The position numbers were made by a program, and so were the translations under genes. Source: Torpedo marmorata (Eukaryota). Taken from it: 64,000 nucleotides of DNA. This document shows, piece after piece, positions 3,091 to 56,596 of the stretch. The notes under the pieces were generated by a model that worked only from the letters and a program-made list of their open reading frames with translations, ran no database searches and was not told the origin of the DNA. Where the stretch lies: the NCBI GenBank assembly GCA_977017645.1, contig OZ360242.1:16368001-16432000 (forward strand). Reading direction: 5' to 3'. The first letter of the stretch is position 1, and every line of letters starts with the position of its first letter.

Positions 3091-3433
3091 TAAGACATGA
3101 GCAGAATTAGGCCATTTGGCCCATCGAGTCCACCCCGCCATTCCATAATGGCTGATTTATTATCCTTTTCAACCCCATTCTCCTGCCTTTTCCTTGTAAC
3201 CCTTAATTCCCTTCCTAAGCAAGAACCTATCTGTTTCAGTCTTAAATATACCCAATGACTTGGCTTCCACTGCTGTCCACAACAATGACTTCCCCAGATT
3301 CACCACCTTCTGGGTAAAGAAATTCTCCTCTTCTCTGTCCTTACTGAGGCTGTGCCCTCTGATCATAGACTCCCCCACTATAGGAAACATCCGCTCCACA
3401 TCCACTCTATCCAGGCCTTTCAGTTTTTGATAG

Positions 3434-3676
3434 TGATAGGCCTATCAATGATTCCAGAGAGGCAAGAAGTAGTGCAGGAACAGAAGGCTTTTATTAGCTA
3501 TAAAAGAGCACGGCAGTTGACCTGCTGGGACCTGCTGATCTATCCCGGAATGAGGGCGGAGCAGTGGCACAAGGGCCTTTATTCGGGGTAGGAAGGGGAG
3601 GAGCAACCGGGACAGACAGCAGGACATGCCCAGACTTATCCTCAGCCCACAATACACATAACACTGGTTTACCACA
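3434..3676 (-). repeat. 3' LTR of element A
   Basis: Direct repeat of 7637-7879. Confidence 0.95.
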
Positions 3677-3786
3677 TTCACCCCTCCTTTTTAAAAAAGA
3701 GTCCAACGGGGTGACGTGGCCACTGTGGTTATCTTTACAAATACAAAGTGTAAAACAGATGTAAACGAATATATACATATATACAT

Positions 3787-6700
3787 TTACAGGTCGAGCC
3801 GATCAGGCGGTCGGATCCGCCGCTGCGACCTGCGCAGTACCCGTGGTGACGGGGCAGGCTGTGGTGATGGTGGCTGGGTTGTCTCCTGCCTGGCTTGCAG
3901 TACATCCGGCACCGGCGAGGGTGCTGGGGCTGTCGTGCTGGGAGAGGGGGGGGGCTGCGACAAGGGGTTTCCGTTGTCGAGGGCTTCTCCCGGCGCTCCT
4001 GCTGGCGCCAGGTCGCGTATCGATACGGTGTCTTCCCGCCCATCAGGGAAGACCACGTAGGCGTACTGGGGGTTAGCATGGGCTAACTGCACCCTCTGGA
4101 CCATGGGTTCGTATTTGCTACTCCGAAGGTGTCTGCGGGGCAGCACAGGTCCCGGGGACGTCAGCCAAGCAGGTAGGGTGGTTCCGGTGGTCGACTTCCT
4201 GGGGAAGGAGAAAAGTCGTTCGTGAGGGGTGGCATTAGTAGAAGTGCACAGCAGGGACCGGATGGAGTGGAGGGCCTCCGGGAGAACTTCCTGCCATCGG
4301 GAGACCGGCAACCCCTTTGACTTGAGGGCCAGGAGCGCGGCTTTCCAAACGGTGGCGTTCTCCCTTTCCACCTGTCCGTTGCCCCGTGGGTTGTACCCTG
4401 TGGTCCTACTAGTGGCGATGCCCCGGGCCTGCAGGTACTGTCGCAGCTCTTCGCTCATAAAAGCTGATCCCCGGTCGCTATGTATATAGCTGGGGAAGCC
4501 GAATAGTGTAAATACCTGGCGAAGAGCTTTAATGGCCGAGATGGCCGAGGTATCGGGGCAGGGAATGGCAAAGGGGAACCGCGAGTATTCGTCAATGATA
4601 TTGAGGAAATACACATTGTGGTCCGTGGAGGGAAGGGGGGCCTTGAAGTCGATGCCGAGACGTTCAAAAGGGCGGGTGGCTTTGACCAGCTGTGCCTTGT
4701 CGGGGCGGTAGAGCTGTGGTTTGCACTCCGCGCAGACCCGACAACTGCTGTTCATTGTCCTGACCTCTTCCAGGGAGTAGGGCAGGTTCCTGGCTTTCAC
4801 GAAGTGGAACAGCCTGGTAACTCCTGGGTGGCAGAGGTCACAGTGGAGGGAGTACAATCGGTCGATCTGCGCGCTGGCGCACGATCCCCGGGATAGAGCA
4901 TCGGAGGGCTCATTGACCTTCCCGGGCCGGTACAGGATATCGTAATTGTAGGTGGAGAGCTCTATTCTCCACCTCATGATCTTATCGTTTTTGATCTTAC
5001 CCCGCTGCTGGTTGTTAAACATAAACGCAACAGAGCGTTGATCCGTCAGCAGGGTAAAGTGCTTACCGGCGAGATAGTGCCTCCAGTGCCTAATAGCCTC
5101 CACTATGGCCTGGGCCTCTTTCTCAACCGCGGAGTGCCGAATTTCGGGGCCTTGGAGGGTCCGTGAGAAGAACGCCACCGGTCTTCCCGCCTGGTTGAGG
5201 GTAGCAGCCAGCGCGAAGTCCGATGCGTCACTCTCCACCTGGAAAGGTGTCGATTCATCCACCGCGTGCATTGCTGCTCGGGCAATGTCCCCTTTTATGA
5301 GGTCAAAAGCCTTACGTGCCTCCAATGGGAGGGGAAACGTGGTGGACTTGACAAGGGGTCGGGCTTTATCTGCGTAATTAGGGACCCACTGCGCATAGTA
5401 CGAGAAGAACCCGAGGCATCGTTTAAGGGCTTTGGGGGTGTGGGGAAGCGGAAGTTCCAGCAGGGGCCGCATGCGGTCGAGGTCGGGTCCAATAACCCCG
5501 TTCTCAACGACGCACCACAGAATAGCGAGTCGGGTGGTCCCGAACACGCATTTATCTTTGTTGTACGTGAGGTTTAGCGCCTTGGCCGCCTGCAGGAACC
5601 TCCGAAGGTTATTATCATGATCCTGGCGATCATGACCACATATGGTGATGTCGTCCAGGTATGGGAAGGTGGCTTTGAGCTTAAATTGGTCGACTATTCT
5701 GTACATCTCCCGCTGGAACACGGACACCCCATTTGTGACTCCGAAGGGGACGCGCAGGAAATGAAACAGCCTGCCGTCCGCCTCGAAAGCGGTGTACGTG
5801 CGGTCCTCCCGACGGATAGGGAGCTGGTGATAAGCTGACTTAAGGTCTATAGTCGAAAATAGCCTGTACTGGGCTATTTGATTCACCATATCCGCGATTC
5901 GTTGTAGCGGGTATGCGTCCAGTTGTTTGAATCGGTTGATTGTTTGACTATAGTCCACCACCATCCTGCTCTTGGCCCCGTTCTTTACCACGACTACTTG
6001 GGCTCTCCAGGGGCTATTACTCGGCTCGATGATCCCCTCCCCCAATAGTCGCTTCACCTCCGCCTTGATAAACGCTCTGTCCCCTGCACTGTATCGCCTG
6101 CTTTTAGTTGCCACGGGCTTACAGTCAGGGGTCAGGTTGGCGAATAGCGACGGGGGCGAGACCTTAAGTGTGGAGAGGCCACAGGTAGTCTGAGGCGTGT
6201 TGTTAAGGAACTGATGGTTAGCTACCGTGATTGCAGGGTGGGGCCCGTCGTAGCGCATCGTGACACTTTGTAGGTGACTCTGGAAGTCAAGTCCCAGTAG
6301 TACCGGCGCACACAAACGAGGCATGACAAGTAATGAAAAGTGCCGATATTCTGTGTCCTGTACTACAATGTTCGCCACACAACCCCCCCGGATGTCCGTT
6401 GTGTGCGACCCGGACTCCATGGCCACCCTCTGGCTTACCGGTACGGTAGTTAGGCCACAGCGCTGTACTGTGTCCGGGTGTATAAAGCTCTCCGTGCTGC
6501 CTGTATCGAACAGGCAGGTGGTCTTGTGCCCCTCAACCAGGATGTCCATCATGGATCGGGACAGCTGGTGGGGCGCACTCTGGTCGAGGGTGACGGATGC
6601 TAGGGTCGGGATGTAGTCTTGATCCGGCGCTGAAGAAGATGGCCGCCTCCGTGAGTCACACGTGTCGTGGCTGGAGCTGCAAGATGGCAGTGCCGGAAGT

Positions 6701-7614
6701 GCTGATGTGGAGCTGTAAGATGGCGGCGCCGGAAGTGCCGGTGTCCAAGATGGCCGCCTCCACTCCTCGCACGAGGTCGCAACCATGGGTGAATACGACG
6801 CCGGAAGTGACGGGAGGTAAGATGGCCGCTCAGAAATCTCACACGCGGCGCTGCTCGGACCCGCTCGCGGCTTAGAGCGGCAGGCCTTTGCGTAATGGCC
6901 TTTCTTGCCGCAGCTGGAGCAGGTCGCGTCTCGGGCCGGGCAGCGTTTGCGTGGGTGCTTCTCGAGCCCGCAGAAATAGCACTTCTCGGGCTCTCGGTTA
7001 ACGGCTGCGGCGGTGAGTTCACGGATGGTGGCAGCGGCGATCGGGTCGCGGCAGACGGCGGCGGCGGTCAGATCGCCGGCAGGGTTGGGGTTCGGGACTG
7101 TCCACGAGGCCGGCTGGAGGTCGCGCGCTTGCATAGCGTCAGAGTTCCGCAGCACGGCCTCCAGCGTGTGGGCGTGCTCCAGCAGCCGCTGGCGCACGTA
7201 TACCGACCTGATCCCCATGACGAATGTATCTCTCCCCAGCAGTTCCGCATGCTCCTCTGCCGTCAGCGCTTTGCAATCGCACGCCCGCACCAGCGACTGT
7301 ATATCTCGGACAAATTCGGTGATCGACTCCCCGGGCCGCTGCTGCCGCGTTGATAGCCTGTGCCTGTTCACGGGCGTTATGTATAGTCTTTTCAGGGCGT
7401 CCATACCCTCCACGTAAGTTTGACAATCCCGAATTGTCGAATATACCCGAGGGCTTACCCTGGACACGAGGACCGTTTGTTTTTCGTCCTCGTTTTCCAC
7501 TCTGATCGTCCTTAAGAAGGACTCAAAACAACGCAGCCAGTGTTCGAAAGCGTTACCGGCGTCTGGAGCTAGAGGATCGATGTCCAACTTATCCGGTCTC
7601 AGGACGCTCTCCAT
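3787..7614 (-). CDS. Gag-Pol polyprotein (two Zn knuckles, protease, RT, RNase H, integrase), 1275 aa, uninterrupted
   Basis: CYFCGLEKHPRKRC and CSSCGKKGHYAKAC knuckles; LFDTGS protease; YLDD RT; ESDASD RNase H; HxxxxH...CxxC and D-D-E integrase (IDFK, SDRG, VERE). Confidence 0.93.
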   Translation of the reverse strand: MESVLRPDKLDIDPLAPDAGNAFEHWLRCFESFLRTIRVENEDEKQTVLVSRVSPRVYSTIRDCQTYVEGMDALKRLYITPVNRHRLSTRQQRPGESITEFVRDIQSLVRACDCKALTAEEHAELLGRDTFVMGIRSVYVRQRLLEHAHTLEAVLRNSDAMQARDLQPASWTVPNPNPAGDLTAAAVCRDPIAAATIRELTAAAVNREPEKCYFCGLEKHPRKRCPARDATCSSCGKKGHYAKACRSKPRAGPSSAACEISERPSYLPSLPASYSPMVATSCEEWRRPSWTPALPAPPSYSSTSALPALPSCSSSHDTCDSRRRPSSSAPDQDYIPTLASVTLDQSAPHQLSRSMMDILVEGHKTTCLFDTGSTESFIHPDTVQRCGLTTVPVSQRVAMESGSHTTDIRGGCVANIVVQDTEYRHFSLLVMPRLCAPVLLGLDFQSHLQSVTMRYDGPHPAITVANHQFLNNTPQTTCGLSTLKVSPPSLFANLTPDCKPVATKSRRYSAGDRAFIKAEVKRLLGEGIIEPSNSPWRAQVVVVKNGAKSRMVVDYSQTINRFKQLDAYPLQRIADMVNQIAQYRLFSTIDLKSAYHQLPIRREDRTYTAFEADGRLFHFLRVPFGVTNGVSVFQREMYRIVDQFKLKATFPYLDDITICGHDRQDHDNNLRRFLQAAKALNLTYNKDKCVFGTTRLAILWCVVENGVIGPDLDRMRPLLELPLPHTPKALKRCLGFFSYYAQWVPNYADKARPLVKSTTFPLPLEARKAFDLIKGDIARAAMHAVDESTPFQVESDASDFALAATLNQAGRPVAFFSRTLQGPEIRHSAVEKEAQAIVEAIRHWRHYLAGKHFTLLTDQRSVAFMFNNQQRGKIKNDKIMRWRIELSTYNYDILYRPGKVNEPSDALSRGSCASAQIDRLYSLHCDLCHPGVTRLFHFVKARNLPYSLEEVRTMNSSCRVCAECKPQLYRPDKAQLVKATRPFERLGIDFKAPLPSTDHNVYFLNIIDEYSRFPFAIPCPDTSAISAIKALRQVFTLFGFPSYIHSDRGSAFMSEELRQYLQARGIATSRTTGYNPRGNGQVERENATVWKAALLALKSKGLPVSRWQEVLPEALHSIRSLLCTSTNATPHERLFSFPRKSTTGTTLPAWLTSPGPVLPRRHLRSSKYEPMVQRVQLAHANPQYAYVVFPDGREDTVSIRDLAPAGAPGEALDNGNPLSQPPPSPSTTAPAPSPVPDVLQARQETTQPPSPQPAPSPRVLRRSQRRIRPPDRLDL

Positions 7615-7636
7615 CAGATTATATAGCTAATAAAAT

Positions 7637-7879
7637 TGATAGGCATATCAATGATTCCAGAGAGGCGAGAAGTAGTGCAGGAACAGTAGGCTTTTATTAG
7701 CTATAAAAGAGCACGGCAGTTGACCTGCTGGGACCTGCTGATCTATCCCGGAATGAGGGCGGAGTAGTGGCACAAGGGCCTTTATTCGGGGTAGGAAGGG
7801 GAGGAGCAACCGGGACAGACAGCAGGACATGCCCAGACTTATCCTCAGCCCACAATACACAAAACAGTTGTTTACCACA
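7637..7879 (-). repeat. 5' LTR of element A
   Basis: Direct repeat of 3434-3676; gag ATG lies 22 nt downstream. Confidence 0.95.
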
Positions 7880-8680
7880 GATAGGCTTCAATGAGATCAG
7901 TGAGTACAGCCCAAAAGCCATCAAACACTCTTCATATGATATCCCTTTCATTCCGGGGATCATTCTTGTGAACCTCGTCTGGATCCCTCTCCAATGCTAA
8001 CACATCCTTCCTTAGATAAGGAGCCAAAAACTGCTCACAATTCTCCAAGTGAAGTCTGACCAATGCCTTATAAAGCCTCAATGTTACTTCCCTGCTTTTA
8101 AATTCTATCCCTCTCGAAATGAATCCTAGCATTGCATTTACCTTCCTGACTCTACATGCAAGTTAACCTTAGGGAATCTTGCACGAGTTACTGTGCAGGT
8201 CCAATTTTATTTTTTTTTTTAAATTTAGAGATACAGCATGGTAACCCTGTCCCGCCCCAATACACCAATTAGATACAAACCTGTACGCTTTGGAGTTTCT
8301 GAATTCATTGCCTCTTCAGAAAATAGTCTACTCCTTTGTTCCTTCTACCAAAGTGCATGTTCATACACTTCTCTACACTGTATTCCTTCTGCCATTTCCT
8401 TGCCCAATCTCCTAACAGGTCCAAGTTCTTCTGCAGGCTCAGGGCTTCCTCAACACTACCTGCCCCTCCTCCTATCTTTATATCATTCACAAACTTAGCC
8501 ACAAAGCCATCAATTTCATCATTCAAATCATTGACATATAACGTGAAAAGAAGTGGTCCCAGTACAGAGCCCTGTGGACACCACGGGATACTGGCAGCCA
8601 ACCTGAAAAGGCCCCTTTCATCTCCATTCTCTGTTTCCTGGCAGTCAGCCAATTGCCTATCCATGATAATATCTTTCCTG

Positions 8681-11275: not shown

Positions 11276-12254
11276 TACTAATTACCACAATATTGTAGCT
11301 AAAACACCAGAAAATTTGACAAAAGCAGCGACTACAAAAACACCAGCAGCAATGAAAACAACAGCGCGTGCTTGTAGCACGTGCAGACGAAACCACGTGA
11401 TTCGAAGCGTCATTGTAATTGGGTAATAATGACAGTTCTGACTGGAGCACATTAGAAGGTTCAAAAAGTAAATTAGCATAAAGTTTTAGCCTTGTAGGTA
11501 TATTGATACATGTAAGCTGGGCTTACGAAAAAAAAATTTGTTGTTACAACTAACTACAGGGATATTTTTATAAAAAATAATAAATTTCTGCTGAAACACT
11601 GTACAAAAATTTTATAGACAGTAATTTTGGTGTCACCCCCTGATGGTGTCGCCCGGTGCGGTCTGCACCCCCCGCACCCCCCGAGTGACGCCAGTGATTT
11701 CTCACAGTGCAAATTGAGTTCCATTCCCTTTCTCACAGTGCAATTTCAGTTCCCTCCCCTATCTTTGTCCCCTATTACTATCTCCCCAACATCATTTTCC
11801 AGCGATCTAATGACCACCCTGGCCTCTCTTTTGCTCTTTATATATCTGAAAGAAAAAAAATTCAAATCGTCTTTTATGTTACATGGATGAGAGAGGTATG
11901 GAGGGCTATGGACTGGTTGCAGCTCAGTGGGACTAGGCAAAAAAAAATGGTTCTGCACAGACTAGAAGGGCCGAAGGGGCCTGTTTCTGTGCTGTAATGT
12001 TCTATGGTTCTATGTTACTAGCTAGCTTACCTTCGTAGTTCATCTATTCCCTTTTTATCACTTTTTTAGTTACCTACTGTTGGCTTTTCAAAGCATCCAT
12101 ATCCTCTGGCTTCTCACTAATTTTGCAATATTGTACGCTCTCTCTTCTGCTTTTATGGTGTCTTTGAATTCCCATGTCAGCCACAGTTGCCTCATCTTCC
12201 CTTCACAACACTACTTCATCCTTGAGATGCATTTGTCCTGTGCCTTCTGTGACC

Positions 12255-15200
12255 ACTAAGCCAGTCATTGATAAGTCAGAGAAAGACTCTGATATTTATC
12301 CGGCATGTGCCATAACCAGGGCCATGTCTAAGAAAAATGTCACTGTAGAGAAGGCAGTGGAAAATAACTTGCTGAAAGAAAAAGTAAGTGATAATCAAGA
12401 AAACCTGGAAAAGGTTGAGCAATCTCCTATGTTACACCCATCCACTGACAAGACACCTAAAGGCACAGATTTGTCACTATCCCGACAGGAGTTAATAGCA
12501 AGGCAAAAGGACGATCCTGATCTTGCTGAGGTGAGGGATAAGGTTCTCTCTGAAGAGGAGATTAAAAAGGTGCCAGTAGGTTATTATGAAAAAGATGGGG
12601 TGTTGATGAGAAAGTGGAGACCATGTGATGTTCCTGCCAATGAAGAATGGGCAGTAGTGCAGCAGGTTGTGATCCCTAAAGTATATAGGGATGCAATAAT
12701 AACTTTGGCTCATAGTACACCCTTAGGTGGTCATCTTGGGGTGAAGAAAACTATAAGGAAGATAACGAAACAATTTTATTGGCCCAGTTTGAGAAGGGAG
12801 GTTGTAAGGTTTTGCCGGGCCTGTCACACTTGTCAGGTGGTGGGTAAACCTAATCAGGATTCCCTGGTGGCACCCTTGCAACCTATCCCTGCTTTCAGTG
12901 AGCCTTTCTCGAGAGTAATTGTGGATTGTGTTGGCCCATTGCCCAAAACCAAAGCGGGGAATGAGTATTTGTTAACAATTATGTGTGCAGCCACCAGATT
13001 TCCAGAGGCCATTCCTCTGAGAAACATTAAAGCAAAGTCAATTGTAAAGGCTATGGTAAAGTTTTTCACCTTGGTAGGTTTGCCAAGGGAAATTCAATCA
13101 GATCAGGGCAGTAATTTCATGTCAGGCGTTTTCCAACAAGTGGTTGATGGACTAGGAGTTAAACAGATTGTATCCTCTGCGTTCCATCCAGAAAGTCAAG
13201 GGGCCTTGGAGAGGTTCCATTCGACTTTGAAAAACATGATTAGAACCTATTGTTGTGAAAAGGAAAAGGATTAGGATGAGGGGGTTCATTTGTTGTTATT
13301 TGCAGCGAGGGAGTCTGTCCAAGAATCACTTGGTTTTAGTCCATTTGAGTTAGTTTTCGGACATGAGGTGAGAGATCCTTTAAGATTATTAAAAGAACAG
13401 TGGATTAATCGTGATGTGCATTTAAATCTGTTAGATTATGTTTCCAAATTTAAGGATCGGTTACATAGGGCTTGTGAGATGGCAAAGGAGAATTTAAAGG
13501 CCACTCAACGGAGAATGAAGGTTTGGTATGATCGAAAGGCGAAGATGAGAACTTTTAAACCTGGTGAGAATGTATTAGTTCTGTTTCCCGTCCATTCAAA
13601 TCCTCTTAGGGCTAGATTTTCAGGACCCTATAGAGTTAAGGCAAAAATTAATGAGCTCACCTATGTCATAGAAACACCTAATCGCAGACGAGACACACAG
13701 GTCTGTCATGTGAATATGATTAAGCCATATTTTGAACAGGTGCCACACAAAGAGACTGAACATTTACCAGAGGTACTGGTTATTGACAGGGGTAAGGAGG
13801 AGACAGATAAAACCAGTTTCAGAGAGGGTCATGGGACTGTTACTTCTCGGGGTTATGTAGTAGGACAGGGGAAGTTGGCGCCAGTAGAGGCAAAGGTTGT
13901 GACTATTTCCGAGTTCCCTGTTCCAACTGGTAAAAAAACTCTGAGGAGGTTCCTGGGAATGATTGGCTACTACCGCAAGTTCTGTAAAAACTTTGCTGAT
14001 CTTGCGCTCCCTCTCACAAATTTGCTTAGAAAGAAAGAAAAATTTGTATGGTCAACAAGTTGTCAGGAAGCATTTGTCAAATTGAAAACCATGTTATGCC
14101 ACCAACCTGTGCTTAAGTCACCTAATTTAGAACAGCCGTTTTCTTTAGCAGTGGATGAAGCTGTGGGTGCGGTGCTGTTACAGAAGAAGAACGAAGAGGA
14201 CATTGACCATCCGGTATCCTACTTCTCAAAGAAGTTCAATGATCATCAAAGGAATTATTCAACCATAGAAAAAGAGTTGTTGGCTCTACAACACTTTGAA
14301 GTGTATATCTGTACAGCTCAAAAACCACTCATAGTGTACACTGACCATAACCATAAGAATCGACGGTTGTTGAATTGGAGTCTAATTTTGCAAGAATATA
14401 ATTTGATAATCACACATATAAAAGGGAAAGATAATGTAATTGCTGATTGTCTTTCTAGATGTAAAACTTTATCAATGAAAATAGTTCATATTTTGTATTT
14501 GTGGATGAACATTGTAGATTTTGTTTATATTGTGACACCTCAATTACTTTCCAAAATTTTGTTCTTGCAGACCAAAATTTTCTTTGTGGGTGGGAGGTGT
14601 TATGGACCATGACTGACCATTGGGACTGCGGACGGTCAGCAGGAAGGATGAAGTATTTTGGAGTATACACTGGGGCCAGGTACTGAAAGAGTTAACTTGC
14701 CCAGGACTTGGTGTACCCAGAGAGAGAGAGAGAGCAGAGAGAGACAGACTGTGGAAAAGATACATTGTTGCACTTTTGCAAAAGCAGGTGCAGACCTCTG
14801 CAAAAAGCAGACAGTTGGGAGTTGCAAAGGCTAGAGAACACAGCCAAATCCAGGCTTGTGCATCCCAGAGAAAAGACTGGCAGGATAGCACATGGCCTCC
14901 TGTCTCAGAGAAATTCTGAGGTAAAGCAACTTCTGTGGAGAACAGGCGAGAGATCAGCGAGACTAGCTGTGAGATCCAAGCACACGCCTTAATCAGTGGT
15001 ATACTGATCTGAACTCGCAATCCTTATGAAAACACAAGAAGGGAACGTCATCAGAGAAGAAAAACAAGTATTTGTAAGCATAAACAGTCATTGTCTCTCT
15101 CCAACGTTCATTTAGAAGTACTTCTACCAGACACAGAGCTGAATTTGAAACCTGAACTTAGAGAGTGAATTTTGTGGACTGTATTATTCTTTTTTTTGAC

Positions 15201-21000: not shown

Positions 21001-24000
21001 TGTGGCAGCTCACCCACGTGGTAGGCGAACTGGCTCCAGCAGTCGCGGGCAAGTCCGCAGCCAGCGGCATTCACGGGGACTCTCAGTGCGGGGCAAAGCC
21101 GCGGCCCAGAAGCCGACATCACTTCCGCCCCGCCGGGCGCTAAGGTCGCTGGGTCAGGCGCGGGGTTTTAAGCGCGCGATTTTGAATTAGTAAATCAGTT
21201 GCTCTGAAGCTCTGCTCGACTCAGCGTGTTTCTTTCGCTCACAGTGGCACAGCAGCCACATTGGTGACCCCGACGGTCCAACGGCATTTGGACCCGACAC
21301 GAACGACTCCATCGACATGGACAACACGGACGACTCGATTCTTCAAAACGCAGTTTCGCTTAAACTGCCAACTTTCTGGACCACTCAGCCCCTCGTCTGG
21401 TTTCAACAAGCAGAGGCCCAGTTCCAGGTCAGGAACGTTGTCTCCGATGAGACCAGATACTACTACGTGGTGGCTGCGCTTGACCAGAAAACGGCGGGCC
21501 GAGTAATGGACTTTCTGCAACAGCCCCTGGAGGCCAACAGGTATGCAGCACTCAAGGCCCTGTTGGTCGGCATATTCAGCCTCTCACGCCGTGAACGGGC
21601 CGCGCGGTTGCTGCATATGGACGGCCTAGGCGACCGCGCACCGTCAGCCCTGATGAGTGATATGCTGGCACTAGCAGACTACCATAAGCCGTGTCTACTT
21701 TTCGAACAGATCTTTTTGGAGCAGATGCTGGAGGACATCCGCATCCTACCAGCAAATGAGGATTTCTCCGACCCTCGAAAGGTGGCCGCTCACGCGGATG
21801 TTCTTTGTCGTGCCAAATGAGAAGGCAGAACCAGCATCGTGATTAGTGCTGCGTCACGACCGAAGTCCCAGCCACACCGTACACCAGCAGCAAAACCTGC
21901 AACGCCCACGCCAAGAGACGACACCAGTTCCGAGTCTTGGTGTTTTTACCATCAAAGGTGGGGATCCGGGGCCTGCTGATGCCGACCGCCATGCTTGTTC
22001 CAGGGAAACGAAAGGGCCAGCCGTCGCTGATGGCTATGGCGGCTGGCCACCATGATAGCCTCCTGTACATCTGGGACAGACACTCCGGGCACAGATTCCT
22101 GGTGGACACGGGAGCGGAAATCAGTGTCTTTCCCCCCTCGAGCCACGATACCAGAACCAGAGGGGCCAGACCGGAGCTCACGGCGGCCAACGGCAGCACC
22201 ATCCGCACCTACGGCACGCAGACTACCCCCTTTCAATTCGGTTCCAGCCGATTCACATGGACGTTTACGCTGGCCACGGTGTCACAGCCATTGCTGGGTG
22301 CAGACTTCCTCCGCGCGCACTGTTTGCTCGTGGATCTGAAGGGACGACGGCTGGTCGACGCAAAGACATTCCAAACTTTCCCCCTCAGTGAGGCCAAATT
22401 GCCGGCTCCGCACCTAGATTCCGTCACTTGTTCGGACAACGTGTTTGCCAGGGTGTTGTCGGAGTTTCCATCCGTCATCACGCCGCAGTTTTCCACAGCA
22501 GCCCCCAACCACGGCGTGATGCACCACATTCCCACACAGGGACACTCCCTGCACGCCCGGACCCGCAGGCTACCACCAGACAAGCTCCGACTCACGAGGG
22601 AGGAGTTTAACAAGATAGAGGAGATGGGGATCGTGCAGCGTTCTGACAGCCCATGGGCCTCCCCGCTCCATATGGTGCCCAAGTCCGCGGGAGGATGGAG
22701 GCCGTGTGGTGACTACAGGAGGCTGAATGATGCAACCATCTCCGATAGATATCCAGTCCCGCACATCCAAGACTTCACGGCCAACCTGCACGGGGCATGC
22801 ATCTTTTAAAAAATTGAAGTCCCAGTCCACCCAGATGATATTCCAAAGACGGCCATCATTACCCCATTCGGCCTGTTCAAATTCCTCAGGGTGCCGTTCG
22901 GCTTAAAAAACCCAGCACAGACCTTCCAGCGCCTCATGGATGCAGTAGGGAGGAACCTGGACTTTCTGTGCATCTACCTAGATGACATCCTGGTAGCCAG
23001 CCACTCCCGCCAGAAACATCTGGCACATCTGCGCCTGCTCTGCTGCCACCTCAGTGACTATGGCCTGTCGATCAACATCGCCAAGTGCCAGTTCGGCCAA
23101 CCCACCATCGACTTCTTGGGACACCAGATCGACCGTCACGGAGCCGTCCCCCTGCCGACGAAAGTGGAAGCCATTCGCCAGGCCCAACACAGTCAAAGGC
23201 GTCGGTTATGTATTTCTATCTTTGCTACATAAAAGACACTGTTTGACCTGCTGAGTTCTCCAGCTTTTGTGTTTTTTACAGTCAAAGGCCTGCAGGAATT
23301 TGTCAGGATGGTTAACTTTTACCACCGGTTCATTCCCTCAGCGGCCCGGATCACGTGCCCCCTTTTCGGCTTGATGTCCGGCAAAGCCAAAGAAGTTGCC
23401 TGGACGGAAGAGGCGATGGAAGCTTTCGACCAGGCCAAGAACGCTCTAGCCAATGCCACGCTCCTGGTCCACCCCTGAGTAGACGTCCCCACGGTCCTCA
23501 CTGTGGACGCCTCCGAAGCGGCAGTCGGCGGCGTGCTTGAACAGTTAATTGAAGGCCAATGGAAACCGCTTGCTTTCTTCAGCCGGTACCTGCGACCCCC
23601 AGAGATCAAGTACAGCGCGTTCGACAGAGAGCTGCTGGCCCTGTACCTGGCCATTCGGCACTTCATGTACTTCCTGGAAGGGATGAAGTTCAGGATCTTC
23701 ACACAGTAGGGAGGAAGAGACGTTTACCATAGACCGTCTCAAACCGGCACACCTGGACATTGAACGACCAGTCGTGGTGCCACCCGCTAGGAAACGAGGC
23801 CAACCACGTAAAACGGACTGTGTACAGGTTACGGTTTCTGCGCCTCCTATCGCCGGTTCTGGGGGGGGGGGGTGTCATGTGGCGGCTCACCCACGCGTCA
23901 GGCGAACTGGCTCCAGCAGTCGCGGGCAAGTCTGCAGCCAGCGGCATTTACGGGGACTCTCAGTGCGAGGCAAAGCCACGGCCCGGAAGCCAACGTCACT

Positions 24001-24137
24001 TCCGCCCCGCCGGGCGCTAAGGTCGCTGGGATAGGCGCGGGGTTTTAAACGCGCGATTTTGAATTAGTATATCAGTTGCTCTGAAGCTCTGCTCAACTCA
24101 GCGTGTTTCTTTTGTTCACAGTGGCACAGCAGCCACA
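21001..24137 (+). mobile_element. CsRn1-like Ty3/Gypsy LTR retrotransposon, degenerate (integrase largely deleted)
   Basis: 260-bp LTRs at 21001-21260 and 23878-24137; TSD CGCT; PBS TGGTGACCCCGACG (tRNA-Trp complement); poly-G PPT; gag AVSLKLPTFW, protease FLVDTGAE, RT YLDD, RNase H DASEAAVG with stops and deletions. Confidence 0.92.
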
Positions 24138-27197: not shown

Positions 27198-30100
27198 TGA
27201 TGTACCTATCAATGACAGATGCGAGTCTAGAAGTGCAGGAATTAATAGGCTTTTAATACCAGAATCAAGGCCAGGGCTAAGCTACACCTTGACCTGGTGA
27301 TCCCTGCTGGATTGTCCCGGAACTGAGGGAGGAGTCAATGGCTCAAGGCCTTTATTCCAGGGAAAGGGGGGAGGAGTCACCGGGACAGACAGACAGGTCA
27401 TGGTCATACTTGCCTCAGGCCACAATACCTATATACATACTAAAAGTGGTTTACCACATTCACCCCTTCTTTTAGAACAAGTCCGACGGGGGGGGGGGGG
27501 GTGAAGTGGATACCATAATATTAAAGAAAAGAACAAATAAACATAGATTATTTACATAGTCTCTACAAGTCGAGTCTAACCGGCGGCCGGATTCGCCGCC
27601 GTGACCTGCGTAGTACCAGCGGTGATGGTAGTGGTTGTGGAATGAGGGTACGTGATGCCTGCGGAGATGGTTGTGGTTGTGGAACGGGAGTAGGTATAGT
27701 AGGGTGGATCTGGGTTTGGTTCGCCTCCTGCCTGGCTTGTGGCCTTTCCAGCTGCGGCTGGGGCGTTGTACCCGCCGTGCTGGGAGGCGGATGGGCCGGA
27801 GGGGGCAGCTGCGACCCGGCGTTCCCGCTGTCGGGGACCTCCTCTGACGCTCCTGCAGGCGCCAGGTCCCGTATGGACACCGTGTCTTCCCGTCCGTCAG
27901 GGAAAACCACGAATGCGTACTGCGGGTTCGCATGGATCAGCTGCACCCTCTCGACCAAGGGCTCGTACTTGCTACTCCGAAGATGTTTGCGGAGTAGCAC
28001 CGGCCCTGGGGACGTCAGCCAGGCAGGGAGGGTGGTCCCAGTGGTCGATTTTCTGGGGAAGGAAAAGAGACGTTCGTGAGGGGTAGCGTTAGTGGCAGTA
28101 CACAAAAGGGATCGTATGGAGTGGAGGGCGTCCGGGAGAACCTCCTGCCAGCGAGCCACTGGCCACCCTTTTGCTTTCAGGGCCAGTAGTGTAGCTGTCC
28201 ATACCGTGGCGTTCTCCCTCTCCACCTGTCCGTTCCCCCGTGGGTTGTACCCCGTGGTCCTACTGGTGGCGATGCCTCGGGTCTGCAAATGCTGTCGCAG
28301 CTCCTCGCTCATGAACGCGGATCCCCGGTCGCTATGGACATAGCTGGGGAACCCGAACAAGGTGAATACCTGGTGGAGGGCCTTGATAGCCGACGCCGCC
28401 GAGGTATCTGGGCAGGGGATGGCAAAGGGGAACCGCGAGTACTCATCGATGATGTTGAGGAAGTACACATTGCGGTTCGTGGAGGGAAGGGGGCCCTTGA
28501 AGTCTGTACTGAGACTTTCGAACGGGCGGGTGGCCTTGACCAGCTGTGCTTTGTCGGGGCGGTAGTACTGCGGTTTGCATTCCGCACAGACTCGGCAGCT
28601 GCTGGTCATGGTTCTGACCTCATCCAGGGAGAAAGGCAGGTTCCGTGCTTTAATGAAGTGGAACAGCCTGGTGACTCCTGGGTGGCAGAGGTCGTTGTGT
28701 AGGGAGTATAACCGGTCGATCTGCGCGCTGGCGCACGATCCCCGGGATAGAGCGTCAGGGGGCTCGTTGAGCTTCCCGGGCCGGTACATGATGTCGTAAT
28801 TATAGGTGGAGAGTTCTATTCTCCACCTCATGATTTTGTCATTCTTGATTTTACCCCGCTGCTGGCTGTTAAACATGAATGCGACGGAGCGCTGGTCCGT
28901 CAGCAGGGTAAAATGTTTTCCGGCGAGATAGTGCCTCCAATGCCGAACAGCCTCGACAATGGCCTGGGCCTCTTTCTCTACCGCGGAGTGCCGAATTTCG
29001 GGGCCTTGAAGGGTGCGGGAGAAAAACGCTACCGGCCTTCCCGCCTGGTTGAGGGTAGCAGCCAGTGCGAAGTCCGAGGTGTCACTCTCCACCTGAAAAG
29101 GTTCCGACTCGTCCACCGCGTGCATCGCTGCTCGGGCGATGTCCCCTTTTATGAGGTCGAAAGCCTCACGTGCCTCCGCTGCAAGGGGAAACTTGGTGGA
29201 CTTGACGAGGGGTCGGGCTTTGTCCGCGTAGTTTGGGACCCACTGCGCATAATACGAAAAAAACCCGAGGCATCGTTTAAGTGCTTTGGGGGTAACGGGG
29301 ATCGGAAGTTCCAACAGGGGGCGCATGCGGTCGGGGTCGGGTCCAATCACCCCGTTTTCCACGACGCACCCCAGGATAGCGAGTCGGGTAGTCCCGAACA
29401 CGCATTTCTCCTTGTTATAAGTGAGGTTCAGCGTCTCGGCTGCCTGCAGGAACTTCCGAAGGTTCCTATCGTGATCCTGGCGATCATGACCACAAATGGT
29501 GATGTCGTCCAGGTACGGGAAGGTGGCAGTGAGCTTGAACTGGTCAATGATCCTGTCCATCTCCCGTTGGAACACGGATACCCCATTTGTTACCCCGAAG
29601 GGGACGCGCAGAAAATGAAATAATCTGCCGTCCGCCTCGAAAGCGGTGTACACTCGGTCCTCCCGGCGAATCGGGAGCTGATGGTAAGCCGACTTTAGGT
29701 CGATAGTGGAGAATACTTTATACTGCGCAATCTGGTTGACCATATCCGCGATTCTTGGCAGCGGATAGACGTCCAGTTGCGTGAACCGGTTGATGGTCTG
29801 GCTATAGTCCACCACCATCCGGCTCTTAGCCCCGTTCTTCACCACGACTACCTGTGCTCTCCAGGGGCTGTTACTGGGTGCAATGATCCCTTCCTCCAGT
29901 AAACGCTGCACCTCCGCCTTAATGAATGCCCTGTCCCCTGCACTGTATCGCCTACTTTTAGTTGCAATGGGCTTACAGTCAGGGGTCAGGTTGGCGAAGA
30001 GTGGCGGGGGTTGGGTCTTCAGCGTGGAGAGACCACAGGTAGTCTGGGGCGTATTATTCACGTATTGGGGGTTTGCCACTACGATCGGGGGGTGGGGCCC

Positions 30101-31955
30101 ATCATAGTGCATGGTGACGCTACGCAGGTGGCTTTGGAAGTCCAATCCCAGCAATACAGGAGCACACAAACGGGGCATGACCATCAATGAAAACTCCCGA
30201 TATTCCGTGCCCTGTACCACTATATTCGCCACACAACCCCCCCGGATGTCTGTTGTGTGCGTTCCAGATGCCATGGCCACCCTCTGGCTTACCGGTACAA
30301 TGGTGAGGCCACAGCGCTGGGCAGTGTCTGGGTGTATAAAACTTTCGGTACTGCTTGTGTTGAACAGGCAGGTGGTCTTATGCCCCTCAACTAGTATGTC
30401 CATCATTGATCTGGACAGTTGATGGGGCGCGTTCTGGTCCAGCGTCACGGATGCCAGGGTCGGGACGAAGTCTTGGTCCGACGAGTCGTCTTGATCCGAT
30501 GGCAGCTCCCGTAGCGCACACGTGTCGCTACAAGATGGCGGCGCCGGAAGTGCTGGCACAGCCGCGGCGAGGTTGTAAAATGGCCGCGCCGGAAATGTAG
30601 AAACCGGAAGTGCAGACCAAGATGGCCGCCTCCATTCCTCGCACGAGGTCTCCGCCAGAAGTGACGTCAGGTAAGATGGCCGCTCCCCCACTTCGCATGC
30701 GGCGCTGCTCGAAACCGGAAGTGCTGCGCGCCGAGATGGCCGCCTCCATTCCTCGCACGAGGTCTCCGCCGGAAGTGACGTCAGGTAAGATGGCCGCTCC
30801 CTTACTTCGCACGCGGCGCTGCTCGGACCCGTACGCGACTTGGAGCGGCAGGCCTTAGCATAGTGGCCTTTCTTGCCACAGCTAGAACAAGTCGCGTCTC
30901 GGGCCGGGCAGCGCTTGCGCGGGTGTTTGTCGAGCCCGCAGAAGTAGCACTTCTCGGGCTCCCGGGTGACAGCGGCAGCGGTTAACTCACGGGTGGCGGC
31001 GGGCTCTCGGGCAGCGGCGGCAACGGCCAACTCACGGATAGCATCGGCGGCGGTGATCGGGTCCCGGTAGACGGCAGCGGCCGTCGCGTTGCTTGCAGGG
31101 CTGGCGGTTGGGGCGATCCAAGAGGCAGGCTGCGTCTGCATAGCGTCAGCGTTCTTGAGCGCCGATTCCAGCGTGAGGATATTCCGGACGGTAGATTTCA
31201 GGGTCAGGTCGGCGTGTTCCAGCAATCGCTGGCGAATGTAACCCGACCTGATCCCCATAATGATAGTGTCCCTTGCCAGTATTTCGGCGTGTTGCTCGGC
31301 CGTCAGGGCTCGACAATCGCACGCCCGCACCAGGAGCATCACGTCCTGGATATATTCAGAGATCGACTCTCCGGGTCGCTGGTACCGTTGCGATAACCGG
31401 TGCCTCGCGAAAACCTCGTTCACCGGCGTCAGGTACAGCCTTCGGAGGGCTTCCAAGGCATCCTCATAGGTATCACAGTCTCTGACAGCGCCATACACTC
31501 GTTTGCTTACTCTGGACATGAGGATGTCGAGTCTATGCTCGTTGGTAGCCGCTCCGGTCGACCTCAGGAAGGCTATGAAGCAGCGCAGCCAGAGTTCAAA
31601 GTCACTTGCAGCGTCTTGGGCCAGGGGGTCGATGTCCAGCTTATCCGGCCTCAGAAAATTCTCCATCGGATTTTCTTGGAACTGGTATTAAAATTGATGT
31701 ACCTATCAATGACAGACGCGAGTCTAGAAGTGCAGGAATTAATAGGCTTTTAATACCAGAATCAAGGCCAGGGCTAAGCTACACCTTGACCTGGTGATCC
31801 CTGCTGGATTGTCCCGGAACTGAGGGAGGAGTCAATGGCTCAAGGCCTTTATTCCAGGGAAAGGGGGGAGGAGTCACCGGGACAGACAGACAGGTCATGG
31901 TCATACTTGCCTCAGGCCACAATACCTATATACATACTAAAAGTGGTTTACCACA
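27198..31955 (-). mobile_element. Full-length Ty3/Gypsy LTR retrotransposon (Mag-like), element B, related to element A
   Basis: 261-bp LTRs at 27198-27458 and 31695-31955 (1 mismatch seen); TSD CGGCA at 27193-27197 and 31956-31960; PPT; single ORF. Confidence 0.96.
27563..31666 (-). CDS. Gag-Pol polyprotein, 1367 aa, uninterrupted; protease active site reads LFNTSS
   Basis: Same domain order and motifs as 3787-7614; YLDD intact; 38-aa tandem duplication in the gag-protease linker. Confidence 0.93.
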   Translation of the reverse strand: MENFLRPDKLDIDPLAQDAASDFELWLRCFIAFLRSTGAATNEHRLDILMSRVSKRVYGAVRDCDTYEDALEALRRLYLTPVNEVFARHRLSQRYQRPGESISEYIQDVMLLVRACDCRALTAEQHAEILARDTIIMGIRSGYIRQRLLEHADLTLKSTVRNILTLESALKNADAMQTQPASWIAPTASPASNATAAAVYRDPITAADAIRELAVAAAAREPAATRELTAAAVTREPEKCYFCGLDKHPRKRCPARDATCSSCGKKGHYAKACRSKSRTGPSSAACEVRERPSYLTSLPAETSCEEWRRPSRRAALPVSSSAACEVGERPSYLTSLLAETSCEEWRRPSWSALPVSTFPARPFYNLAAAVPALPAPPSCSDTCALRELPSDQDDSSDQDFVPTLASVTLDQNAPHQLSRSMMDILVEGHKTTCLFNTSSTESFIHPDTAQRCGLTIVPVSQRVAMASGTHTTDIRGGCVANIVVQGTEYREFSLMVMPRLCAPVLLGLDFQSHLRSVTMHYDGPHPPIVVANPQYVNNTPQTTCGLSTLKTQPPPLFANLTPDCKPIATKSRRYSAGDRAFIKAEVQRLLEEGIIAPSNSPWRAQVVVVKNGAKSRMVVDYSQTINRFTQLDVYPLPRIADMVNQIAQYKVFSTIDLKSAYHQLPIRREDRVYTAFEADGRLFHFLRVPFGVTNGVSVFQREMDRIIDQFKLTATFPYLDDITICGHDRQDHDRNLRKFLQAAETLNLTYNKEKCVFGTTRLAILGCVVENGVIGPDPDRMRPLLELPIPVTPKALKRCLGFFSYYAQWVPNYADKARPLVKSTKFPLAAEAREAFDLIKGDIARAAMHAVDESEPFQVESDTSDFALAATLNQAGRPVAFFSRTLQGPEIRHSAVEKEAQAIVEAVRHWRHYLAGKHFTLLTDQRSVAFMFNSQQRGKIKNDKIMRWRIELSTYNYDIMYRPGKLNEPPDALSRGSCASAQIDRLYSLHNDLCHPGVTRLFHFIKARNLPFSLDEVRTMTSSCRVCAECKPQYYRPDKAQLVKATRPFESLSTDFKGPLPSTNRNVYFLNIIDEYSRFPFAIPCPDTSAASAIKALHQVFTLFGFPSYVHSDRGSAFMSEELRQHLQTRGIATSRTTGYNPRGNGQVERENATVWTATLLALKAKGWPVARWQEVLPDALHSIRSLLCTATNATPHERLFSFPRKSTTGTTLPAWLTSPGPVLLRKHLRSSKYEPLVERVQLIHANPQYAFVVFPDGREDTVSIRDLAPAGASEEVPDSGNAGSQLPPPAHPPPSTAGTTPQPQLERPQARQEANQTQIHPTIPTPVPQPQPSPQASRTLIPQPLPSPLVLRRSRRRIRPPVRLDL

Positions 31956-49400: not shown

Positions 49401-51355
49401 AGAGAAAGGGGAATCTAATTTCGTCTGATCGTCTTGATCCAATCTCGGCAAATCAATCTTGGACAAAAATTCATCTATTTTAGTTAAATCTTTAGGTGAC
49501 TGATTTATACAGCTCAGTATAGAATTGCTTGAATGTATCGTTTATCTCTTTTGGGTTGTGTGTTATCTTGTCTGATCCCAACTGAATCGCATTAATTGTC
49601 CTCGATGTCACTTCCGCCTTCAATTGCCAAGACAAGACCTCTCACCTAATTCATAATATTTTTGCCTGGACCTCAAAATGGTTTTCTCCATTCGATATGT
49701 TTGTAGAGTGTTGTACTTAAGCTTCTTATTAACCAGAATTTGATATTTTTCCTTTGAGACAGATTGTTGATATTCCTTTTCCAACTCTAGAATTTCTCGT
49801 TCTAATTCATTTACATCTGCCAGATGTTTTTTCTTTACATTTTTAGTGTTCGAAATTATTTGTCCCCTCAAATAAGCCTTTAAAGTATCCCATATTAAAA
49901 AACTGTTATTAGTGGAGGGGCAATTTGTTTCACAAAACAAATTTATCTGACCCCTTATAAAGTCACAAAAATCTGTCCTTTTCAACAGCGTGGAATTAAG
50001 GCGCCATTTGTATACGTTAGCCTGTTTTTCTGGCATAACAATAGATAGAATCAAAGGTGCATGATCTGATAATAGTCTGGCTAGATATTCCGGTTCGATC
50101 ACTCTGCCTTCCAGCTGCGCCGACATTAAAAAAATAGTCAATTCTAGTATAGGAATCATGGGGTTCAGAGTAAAAGGAGTAATCTCTGGCTTGTGGGTGT
50201 AACCATCTCCATGCATCTATTAAATTTAGATCTTTCATAAAGGCCAGCCTTGGAATTGAAAGAGGACGCAAACACCTGTCACACCCATTCCCTCTTTAAT
50301 TTGTTATGTTCTTTATTTGTGAGGTGAGTTTCCTGCAAAAAGACTATATCCACCTGCATTTTTTTTAAGGTGTGCCAAAACTCTTTTCCTTTTTATGGGT
50401 CCATTTAATCCATTAACATTAAAACTAACAAATTTTATAGTCTTATTCATTATAGTGTTCATACATTACTATGTTATTTTCATAGCCCCTTAGTATATTT
50501 CTTTCCCAGTGTACATTCTCCCTTATAAGGAAACACATGTATTTCCCCTGCACTGACAGTGACGTCATCAGGAAACCCCAAAAGCCTGCGAAAAAAAATT
50601 TGCAAGGCAAAAAGAAATTCCCTCCCCTTTTTTCCAGTGCCATTTTTCAAAACAACCCTTCTCCTGGTGCCATCAGCCCCCTTAATTTGAAGTACACTGT
50701 GCCCATCCTACCATAACTTCCCAGCCCTTCCCGGGCTCTCCTTATATTTTTACAACATTTTCTTATAATAAAATACACCCCCGCAATTCAATATACAATA
50801 ATCCAACCCCTCCACCTTCTTTTACACCACATGGTCCGCCCCATCTCTTTTACTCAACGTCTATTTATATCCTCCGCGATTCTTTCAGTCCTTGTGCCGT
50901 CTCCTTTCCCGTGTCGAGGAAAATCTACTAGTCACAGAATTAACCCATGCAGAGACGTTCAGGGTAGAGCTTCAAGAGACTTTAATCATGACATTGTCAC
51001 GGAGAGCTTGCCCAGTCCGCACTGAGTCAATGCTCTGCTTTCTGCTTAATCTTGTCTGTTTGTATACAGTGTAGTAAACAACTTTTTACAATGAAGCAGT
51101 CATGGGCTACACAAGGTTTCAATAATTCCATCGATTAATCATTTAGAACTTCATTCTATCTTCTAAACACATAGTTTCTGTCTCTTGATGATAACACCCA
51201 GCTTGCAGTAAAGTTGATAAGGAAAAAGGAGTTACTGTCTCATGTCCTGTTACATCCTTCAAGACCTTGAAGGCTTTCCGGCCCCTATGAGTATGCTTAT
51301 TAACCCATTGAGGTCGGAGTAACATTTTTCCTTCTACAAATCCCTCCTTGTGGAT

Positions 51356-52435
51356 CTACAGATCCACATCACGCCCTTCTGATGGGAAGGGAGGATCATA
51401 TCCTTGCGGAAATGGTCGCATCTGCAAACACACTTCTTCATTATAAGATTCCTGCATGCGACTACAATTTTTTATTCTGTTCCTATTAATGCGCACATGT
51501 TCCTTGAGCTGGGCTACAAGCGTCATTGCAGTATTTATCAACTGCTTTACCCTGAGCCATAATACGCAAGTCACAACTAAAAGTAACAGAATAAAGATCC
51601 CCACTACCACTATAGGATGTATTGCTAATTTGAGGACGGCCGAGGCTTTTGGGGACCACCCCTTGAAAATGTCCCACCAATGGTGCACCGTGAGTGAGGT
51701 CACCTGATCCGATATTCGAATCAGTTGACCCTCCTTGTAGCTCATTTCCACTGTCATTTGTCGGAGGTTACGTCCTCTCTGAGCCAAGGCATTGGTTATC
51801 TCCTGTCCATTCTTAATAAGAGTGTGTAATTTGTTAAGACTGATGACTGGGGGCAAGAGCTCAATATGATTAACACTCATATATTTTTTTCATGTGCTTC
51901 CACTGCCCCAAATAGTGGGTCCTATTGGTATGGGGGTCCAGAATCATCCTTACTCCTTTATAACAATTATTTATGGGGGGCTTAAAAAGAACGCCATCCA
52001 AGTTTTCAGCCCACACACTAGATATGCAGACATGGCCCTCACCTATCTCAGAAATCACCGTCTCATTGGAGAATTTCATTTCCCACTTACAAGTTCCATT
52101 GGCGTAATATTGAACGTCAAATCCAACTGCATACTTCCCCCACCTCGGCTAGTCGAGTAAAATACAAATTGACCTCTCCCTGTTCTTTTCCTACATCCCA
52201 TCGGGCATCTAACCACTTCGATCCCTACCACACATCGTTGGCCAGCCGGGCATGTAAAGTTTCCTTGGGTCTGGTTACTGTTGGTTGCCCTCCAGACTAA
52301 GGAGGTCCTCCATTCTTTATAACTTCCTTTCTCAAAAGGGATAGGCCCTTTTGGTTCCACCACTTCCGCCACTGAAGTCTGATAGGTGGGTGCCAAGAAC
52401 AGACCCACCAAACTCAGAATCACAAACTCATTCAT
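51356..52435 (-). pseudogene. env: ERV env, short (probably internally deleted) and frameshifted
   Basis: Signal peptide MNEFVILSLVGLFL; Cys-rich segment; HHWWDIF..WSP pre-TM segment and hydrophobic TM (IVVVGIFILLLLVVTCVLW) just upstream of the PPT. Confidence 0.75.
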
Positions 52436-52473
52436 GTCAAGCGTTTTACAAAGTCAATCAGAAGGCTACAAAG

Positions 52474-55400: not shown

Positions 55401-56596
55401 GTGCCTTTATGACAGGAGCAATGCCTTCTTCGGCCTCGGGGGACAGCCGGTACTGCCGTATGCAGGGTAGGACCGCATTTTTATTCAAAACCACTCTATG
55501 GGGAGTGGCCGAGTGTACCTTCCCTACATGGTTTTTATGTCTTGCCCATATGTCAGGGGGCACCAGCCTCAATGCAGACGGCAATTTTTCGTCTGATTTT
55601 TCAGGGGGCTGCTGGCGCCTGAAAAAGGTTCTGTAACAATGTCGGCACCAGGTAATGCAGCCGCTCCACTCGGAAATCATCTCTATCTGTGCACGACCAC
55701 TTGGTAACTTAACCGTTTCCTGTGCCCATGGGTGATAAGTCTCTGATCGCTGTTCCGCCTTTAATGCCAGTATCATGGGACCCAGGTCCTTCGCAGTAGA
55801 CGGGGGTTTCACGGCCAGAGTCAAATGGGGAACGGAACCCTTTACCTTGAACCTTTTCCACTGTTCTGCTGTTAAAAGGGCCTCCACTCCCACTCCATGT
55901 TTTCCAAAGTAAATCACGGACCCTTCCAATTTTTCCTCCTTATCCAAATACGGGGACACTCGGTCCTGATACTCAGGGTCCTCCAGATAAAAGAACTGGG
56001 CGGTGCAGTGTAATGGCACCTTTTCCATGCTGGTTTGCAGAATGAACTGGCACCCTCGCAGCTAGCTGGTTGCCCCCCATTCCCTTCAAGGCCTCTAGTA
56101 ATTCCTTCAAATCCCGGGAATAAGGATTGCCATCCAGCTGCCAACAATACAAGATGGGGTCTACTCTTTCTGGTTGAGGCACCGGCAGAGTCAACTGCAC
56201 CAATTGAGGAATGCCCTTCGAGGGTACTTCCATATAAATGCCTTGTTCTGTACAGTAAATGGTGGCTCCTAGCTTACATAGGGCTTGTCTCCCTAATAAC
56301 GGTAATGGGGCAGTACTGGAGACAATAAGAGTGTCAGTTATTTGTTGCCCCTGTATTTCCAGGGGCACCGGGAGGGAAAGGGGTTCCTGCATCGGGATTC
56401 CGGCTATCCCCATGCTAACTATGGTAGATCCACTAAGCGGTACTCCCACGGAGGACGGTACAGAGGACATGGTGGCGCCGGTGTCCACCAATAATTGCAA
56501 ATGGCTATCTCCAATTTTCACCGTTACTACGGGCTGATCTTCCATGCCCGACGACAAGCAAACGGAGGGAGCCTGTACCTTCTCTCTGGGGCACCC
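52474..56596 (-). pseudogene. pol: ERV pol: protease, 2H-like domain, RT, RNase H, integrase (several frameshifts)
   Basis: LVDTGA; WRFVQDLRAVN, LPQGY, YADD; FTDGS, SAQAAEL, YTDSQYAF; HxxxH..CxxC, IDF, SDRG, VERMN; PRWKGPY. Confidence 0.92.

Follow-up and report, generated by a model that had tools for sequence, protein, structure and literature searches.

A primer-position arm complementary to its own LTR in a Gypsy lineage without chromodomain from Torpedo marmorata

Element A and the other retroelements of the window

The window analysed here is a stretch of 64,000 nucleotides from Torpedo marmorata (GCA_977017645.1, contig OZ360242.1, positions 16,368,001 to 16,432,000). Its minus strand carries a full-length Gypsy LTR retrotransposon, element A (3434..7879), which is flanked by a 5-bp target duplication (7880-7884 and 3429-3433). 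The 5′ LTR (7637..7879, minus strand; TG...CA) and the 3′ LTR (3434..3676, minus strand) are 243 nt each, with 7 differences between them. A single gag-pol ORF of 1275 codons (3787..7614, minus strand) encodes capsid, two CCHC arrays, protease, reverse transcriptase (RT), RNase H, and integrase, and no chromodomain is present. Before the 3′ LTR, a polypurine tract (3692..3681) followed by TGAA is recognizable in the sequence (3677..3692, minus strand).

The 5′ LTR is separated from gag by a leader of 22 nt (7636..7615, minus strand). The first-pass annotation had reported that this leader contains no TGG tRNA-type site, that gag starts directly after it, and that positions 7622-7635 are the exact 14-nt reverse complement of LTR positions 7692-7705; all of this was confirmed from the sequence. 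The arm at the primer position (7622..7635, minus strand) begins one base past the CA of the LTR. Its partner in the LTR (7692..7705, minus strand) is the predicted self-primer and, as had also been annotated, includes an AATAAA on the element strand (7698..7693). This hexamer (7693..7698, minus strand) is the likely poly(A) signal in the family of element A, and it is not kept lineage-wide. By analogy with Tf1, the 3′ end of the primer would be created by a cut between 7692 and 7691. The 3′ LTR has the same 14-nt segment (3502..3489) with no arm following, and the earlier remark that the pairing partner exists only after the 5′ LTR therefore stands. Shuffling the LTR 5000 times with dinucleotides preserved never gave a complement to the leader of more than 11 nt, as against the 14 nt observed. 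An Rfam search of 7500-7950 gave no match.

In a fold of element A begun at the predicted upstream start, the pairing probability (P) was at least 0.92 for 12 of the 14 pairs and 0.83 and 0.32 for the last two. Folding also predicts a second helix beside this duplex (7643..7691, minus strand), in which the GCC after the paired segment (7691..7686) pairs with the end of U5 (about 7649..7643). A terminal hairpin (7652..7635, minus strand) had been proposed at the junction of U5 and leader. It is indeed in the sequence and folds in the window copy (P up to 0.99), but it is not a conserved fold. In the sister copy L002 it is predicted with a P of about 0.04, and the helix right after the paired segment with a P of 0.95. 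Both L002 and the 3′ LTR of the window have G at the position of 7645, the 5′ LTR of the window being the variant, and it is because of this variant that the terminal hairpin wins in the window copy. In the families of this genome, the partner of the helix formed by GCC or ACC (RCC) lies within the hairpin-forming stretch, therefore the two folds exclude each other. According to the folding predictions, it is the RCC helix and not the terminal hairpin that is the conserved fold.

A sister element, B, is found at 27198..31955 (minus strand). It has its own 12-nt arm (31693..31682), which pairs perfectly with its own LTR (31759..31748) and differs from the arm of element A; both elements have 5-bp target duplications. 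Element B is very young, with 1 difference in its 261-nt LTRs, and each of the 150 matches scored in the genome for the start of its Gag has 99-100% identity. A short Gypsy element, C (21001-24137, plus strand), which we take from its features to be CsRn1-like, has an ordinary TGG primer site and was used as a control. The retrovirus-like element D (50912-59102, minus strand) encodes a CCHC Gag, RT, tether, second RNase H (PF00075), and integrase in several frames, and has a TGG site a few bases past its LTR. Finally, a broken Gypsy element (12168-14612, plus strand) carries integrase ahead of RT-RNase H, an order that is presumably Gmr1-like.

Covariation and geometry of the duplex between arm and LTR

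Copies in the 6.2-Gb genome were collected with a junction pattern whose only fixed parts are the A-run with GCC, the end of the LTR together with the initial bases of the leader, and the start of gag. It matched 32,723 places, and its reversed control 1. The first 70 of the 100 matches listed served as the covariation sample. An earlier pattern, without the usual four-A run, had matched 222 places compared to 15 in the control; of its 100 listed places 90 were examined and 10 were dropped as not resembling full family junctions, and the set, mostly mutated copies, was kept out of the statistics.

A perfect run of at least 11 nt was found in 62 of the 70 sampled copies. At leader positions 9, 10, 12, and 13, the frequency of pairing with the copy's own LTR was 0.96, 0.97, 0.97, and 0.91, respectively, as opposed to 0.51, 0.29, 0.48, and 0.36 between elements. 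At positions 14-16 pairing drops to 0.80, 0.66, and 0.20. Leader positions 7-13, which lie outside the pattern, occur in 33 combinations in the 70 copies. The 14 recurring combinations (51 copies) are all perfectly paired, and 13 of the 19 singletons are mismatched, which is the expected outcome of decay after insertion. With the leaders dereplicated into 26 types, 169 of 182 positions pair, compared to a permutation mean of 108.5 (sd 5.7, maximum 135 in 20,000); this test, like the one on distant families below, ignores kinship among copies and families. Moreover, the duplexes of the recurring types comprise 168 Watson-Crick pairs and no G-U pair, and the neighbouring helix 91 Watson-Crick and 13 G-U pairs. 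Among the best 30 family-A loci, including that of the window, all 12 positions are paired in 27 loci, 11 positions in 2, and 10 in 1, and L026 represents a double change within family A. All 10 family-B loci pair at 12 of 12 positions. Conservation of the pairing across copies, which the first-pass annotation had put forward as a check, was thus found both as covariation in 70 copies of the genome itself and in distant families. At one locus (L214), the LTR segment is like one subfamily and the leader like another, possibly a recombinant with a mismatched duplex.

Priming by a whole tRNA, with its terminal CCA, requires a TGG site. TGG is absent from element A, from element B, and from the 70 sampled copies (their leader start being fixed by the pattern), and it is present in element C and in L340, L346, and L347. 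In a comparison with a partial tRNA set (46 genes for 8 amino acids, the tRNAs of the controls missing), the best complements measured 5-8 nt, and none lay at a 3′ end. The 14 recurring variants follow their own LTRs, therefore no single tRNA fits them all. Such tracking of the own LTR is a stronger argument against tRNA priming than the tRNA comparison. It also bears on the idea of priming at the arm by a half-tRNA or by some other small RNA of the host, with the LTR match as a by-product. Half-tRNA primers are known in copia lineages, according to the accessible text of PMC6317226, and a set of this size leaves room for one; however, 14 recurring arms in one genome, each matching its own LTR, together with complements in that tRNA set that are so short and never terminal, make such a primer extremely improbable.

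A metagenome scan returned 79 loci at 41-65% identity, of which 42 include a gag start and 40 have enough upstream DNA. A complement of 11-19 nt is found in 31 of these 40, matched by at most 1 in 200 shuffles, and 29 of the 31 complements begin one base past a CA. Two loci short of upstream DNA gave complements of 14 and 12 nt when the other end of the contig was used. In 9 of the 40 loci the complement is below 11 nt; no recognizable LTR junction was found in four of these (L079, L097, L100, and L102), and L067, L069, L082, L103, and L108 have the same layout with substitutions and look like decayed copies. Because many metagenome loci come from one assembly, they were dereplicated into 21 families. 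In these families 148 of 168 positions pair compared to 86.1 by permutation (maximum 115), with anchors set by motif, blind to pairing, and with three mis-anchored rows kept in the count. No relative was found in a viral contig collection. The closest named proteins are from rays and catshark, with 76-84% identity over RT to integrase. At the protein level, named relatives are also found in corals, an anemone, a jellyfish, a whipworm, and a damselfly.

Two further features were seen in distant loci. In L090, the primer-site arm occurs twice (about 150-252) with a hairpin-rich insert in between. The LTRs of L054, L055, L057, L063, and L098 have a pyrimidine tract and an AG upstream of the paired segment, which resemble a splice acceptor, and an LTR intron in these families is possible.

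The geometry of the junction was compared in 21 families with a clear duplex, dereplicated and with the one-base offset required. The spacer base is A in 19 of the 21, and GCC or ACC directly follows the LTR segment in 20. The spacer is 1 nt while the length of the loop ranges from 23 to 86 nt. The duplex, of 12-19 nt, ends in a conserved A-run before RCC, and the leader measures 15-47 nt at loci with a clear junction. Position -10 relative to the predicted cut is a G in 19 of 21 families and in 23 of 26 types of the own genome, with a pyrimidine-rich run before it; this would fit a start site yielding a primer of about 11 nt, as in Tf1. A splice-acceptor reading of the AG near -10 was rejected because pairing continues across the AG. 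Folding predicts the CC of RCC to be paired with a mean P of 0.87 in 27 own types and 0.70 in the 21 families, compared to nulls of 0.45 and 0.43, respectively. The predicted helix is weak in 7 of the 21 families (P at most 0.41).

This helix also has a bearing on how the 3′ end of a self-primer would arise. The paired segment is found in both LTRs and ends in A's, which favours a scheme in which the genomic RNA primes with its own 3′ terminus, provided by the 3′ LTR segment, so that the RNA circularizes and no internal cut is made. Such an RNA would, however, have to stop exactly at the AAA/RCC junction and without a long tail, and the conserved RCC helix past the junction would better fit a cut in a continuous RNA. 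Priming from the RNA's 3′ terminus is therefore considered very unlikely, and an internal cut ahead of RCC is the preferred reading.

Poly(A) signal, transcript start, and candidate mechanism of priming

The duplex had also been proposed to hide the poly(A) signal of the 5′ LTR. This may operate in this genome, where AATAAA or ATTAAA is found at the end of the duplex arm in 68 of 70 copies, but as a purpose it is not lineage-wide, the hexamer being there in 10 of 21 distant families. L049 and L087, without a hexamer in the duplex, have AATAAA 26-28 nt downstream. If masking were the main role of the duplex, priming would be left to some other primer. The frequency of the hexamer within the duplex in this genome and the restriction of the partner arm to the 5′ LTR favour this explanation; against it stand the distant families, of which just under half have a canonical hexamer in the duplex and two have an AATAAA farther downstream, the fixed one-base offset and the G-U-free duplex, neither of which masking needs, and the lack of another primer site. 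A duplex that serves mainly for masking is thus improbable, and masking of the 5′ signal is at most a side effect of a duplex that would serve priming.

Retroviral RNA stems are known to mask the 5′ poly(A) signal, for example the poly(A) hairpin of HIV-1. The present duplex is similar in that a stem would cover AATAAA at the 5′ end only. Unlike in the HIV-1 hairpin, the partner lies beyond the LTR, in the primer-site arm, and the hexamer is missing from about half of the distant families.

A search for retroposed A-tailed copies, as markers of the poly(A) site, gave 2 distinct places downstream of the lower hexamer, each of them a T/A run, and none downstream of the upper one. In element A, an imperfect inverted repeat (7734..7826, minus strand) pairs 7826..7810 with 7751..7734 around the upstream AATAAA. 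An inverted repeat around this motif is seen in many subfamilies (L210-L279), with a mean z of -1.64 over 27 types, 17 of which are below -1; it could pair the two ends of the RNA, or mask that hexamer in the 3′ LTR. In the LTRs of L210-L279, moreover, GCC-like bases come after each of the two AATAAA motifs, with a pyrimidine-AG about 30-32 nt farther along. The two halves of these LTRs look like an old duplication or like two elements of the same kind.

Two transcript starts come into consideration. The start probably lies at the 5′ end of the paired segment. The end of covariation at 12-14 nt is sharp, the conserved bases around -11 resemble an initiator, and Tf1 is a precedent for a start at the duplex. 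A start at a site about 50 nt farther upstream is a somewhat doubtful option. In element A this candidate (7754..7786, minus strand) consists of AATAAAGG at 7786..7779 and an initiator-like site 32 nt on (7754), with a putative function in initiation. The distance from AATAAAGG to the initiator-like site is exactly 32 nt in 55 of 63 measurable copies and 31-34 nt in all 63 (7 of the 70 were not measurable), and the distance from the initiator-like site to the predicted cut is variable, at 51-75 nt. The fixed spacing points to a start 51-75 nt before the cut, unlike in Tf1. In distant families, no TATA-like box was consistently found at a constant distance from the paired segment. Both starts may be used; alternative transcript starts are described for Tf2 in the accessible text of PMC5341516.

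The exact complement, its covariation across families, the one-base offset, and the RCC after the segment are direct observations, and the second helix beside the duplex is a prediction from folding. From these, the leader arm is very likely the primer-binding site and the element's own 5′ LTR segment (12-19 nt) its likely primer, in a Tf1-like self-priming. The tRNA-independent self-priming predicted by the first-pass annotation is in this way strongly supported by covariation and fixed geometry. Following the model of Tf1, the element RNA would fold back to place the LTR segment onto the arm, and the element's RNase H would cut just ahead of RCC. From the 3′ end freed in this way, RT would copy the single spacer base and then U5, and the bases that lie between cut and poly(A) site would let the resulting short strong-stop DNA transfer to the 3′ LTR. 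In the families of the own genome, the 5′ poly(A) signal would also be shielded by the duplex.

The absence of G-U pairs from the duplex would follow from copying of the primer into the primer site, as in retroviruses. In the available portion of PMC7472051, Ty1 and Ty3 are described as not inheriting their primer, therefore strict selection on a cleavable duplex explains the missing G-U pairs equally well. A joint reading that goes further is offered only tentatively and is, as a whole, unlikely. It would describe an animal-wide, non-chromovirus Gypsy lineage in which self-priming arose independently of Tf1/sushi. The own-genome families would use an internal primer located 37-61 nt from the cap, silencing of the 5′ poly(A) signal would fall to the same duplex, and every cycle would write the primer anew into the primer site. 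If this were true, changes in the LTR would be compensated in one step by the copying, which would give the 14 perfect recurring variants and no G-U intermediates, and one RNA fold would couple priming, the choice of the 3′ end, and its own inheritance.

Comparison with known elements

Pairing with the primer site involves the first 11 bases in Tf1, and RNase H separates base 11 from base 12 (accessible text of PMC7175516). Its fold has been described as a three-duplex 'pretzel' with a further duplex beside the primer (available part of bioRxiv 10.1101/2022.12.06.519325). The primer sites of Tf1 and Tf2 (Schizosaccharomyces pombe), of Tj1, and of the Tf1/sushi group are complementary to the own LTR, as in the present lineage, for which folding predicts the central duplex of the pretzel and one flanking helix. 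The differences from Tf1/sushi lie in the proteins and in the dimensions of the junction. None of 36 lineage proteins has a chromodomain or SH3_Tf2-1 match (E 0.01), and the Gag, with its two CCHC arrays, resembles that of Mag; the leader measures 15-47 nt and the duplex 12-19 nt with an A-run before RCC. Furthermore, the lineage has two candidate starts, one of them upstream of the primer segment. As chromodomain and SH3 are missing from 36 of 36 proteins, the lineage is not filed in Tf1/sushi, although the proposed mechanism is alike. The missing chromodomain counts against the self-priming reading, self-priming being proven in a group that has this domain. Chromovirus-type elements, sought in this genome as an outgroup, gave weak partial matches only.

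In plants, self-priming has been predicted for Tcn1 (gypsy) and TAR/Houba/Osr-1 (copia) based on a complement of at least 10 bp located 0-5 bp past the 5′ LTR (accessible text of PMC6317226). A complement of this size and position is found in the present lineage as well, while lineages and hosts differ. Beyond the complement itself, covariation and the flanking helix were examined here.

The lineage had been called Mag-like from element A. This holds for the Gag, with its capsid and two CCHC arrays, but apparently not for RT-RNase H, which has 29-31% identity to the Mag-type elements of this genome and its own long branch. The capsid profile matches the Mag-type Gag of the same genome at 5 of 5 loci (E 3e-15 to 9e-8), and it gave no match to elements C and D or to the Gmr1-like element. 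The loci L341-L347, which from their features we take to be Mag/SURL-type Gypsy (the label Gmr1 being assigned in the same way), share with it a homologous capsid, two CCHC arrays, and the organization as one ORF, and resemble it in a basic C-terminal motif. Unlike the present lineage, however, they have TGG primer sites. The identity of RT-RNase H to element C is 28% and to the Gmr1-like element 30%. In a quick tree without named references, the 30 rows from the lineage group together as a single clade with a long branch (SH-aLRT 100). Element D, whose match was too short, is not part of this tree. Cigr-1 of Ciona, through its resemblance in size, may be a lead to the identity of the clade. 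The accessible part of the supplement to PMC6238403 places Cigr-1 under Mag.

Self-priming in a non-chromovirus animal Gypsy lineage was not found in the literature searched, which for the most part did not include subscription papers, so that a prior mention is possible. The accessible texts of PMC3601003, PMC6934838, PMC4600332, PMC6238403, PMC2864245, PMC2774666, PMC8556966, and PMC11042837 contain no such report. The elements named as self-priming in the available text of PMC6317226 are Tf1/sushi, Tcn1, and TAR/Houba/Osr-1, and among Gypsy elements self-priming has so far been tied, in the literature found, to Tf1/sushi chromoviruses. The feature described here is real and lineage-wide; its probable mechanism is a known one, in a lineage for which no earlier report was found. 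If self-priming holds, a second and very successful animal lineage would be independent of host tRNA, and its elements would be beyond control by tRNA supply and by 3′ tRNA fragments. Annotation tools that require a tRNA site would miss or misread such elements. In addition, the compensated variants, together with the invariant spacer, A-run, RCC, and G at -10, would amount to a map of what RNase H requires for its cut in an RNA-RNA duplex.

As a name for the clade, Saci2 was rejected because elements A and B have 5-bp target duplications and the Saci2 clade has a 4-bp one (PMC12471100). In Saci2-like tapeworm elements, primer sites vary by family, which the accessible text of the same paper reads as tRNA switches.
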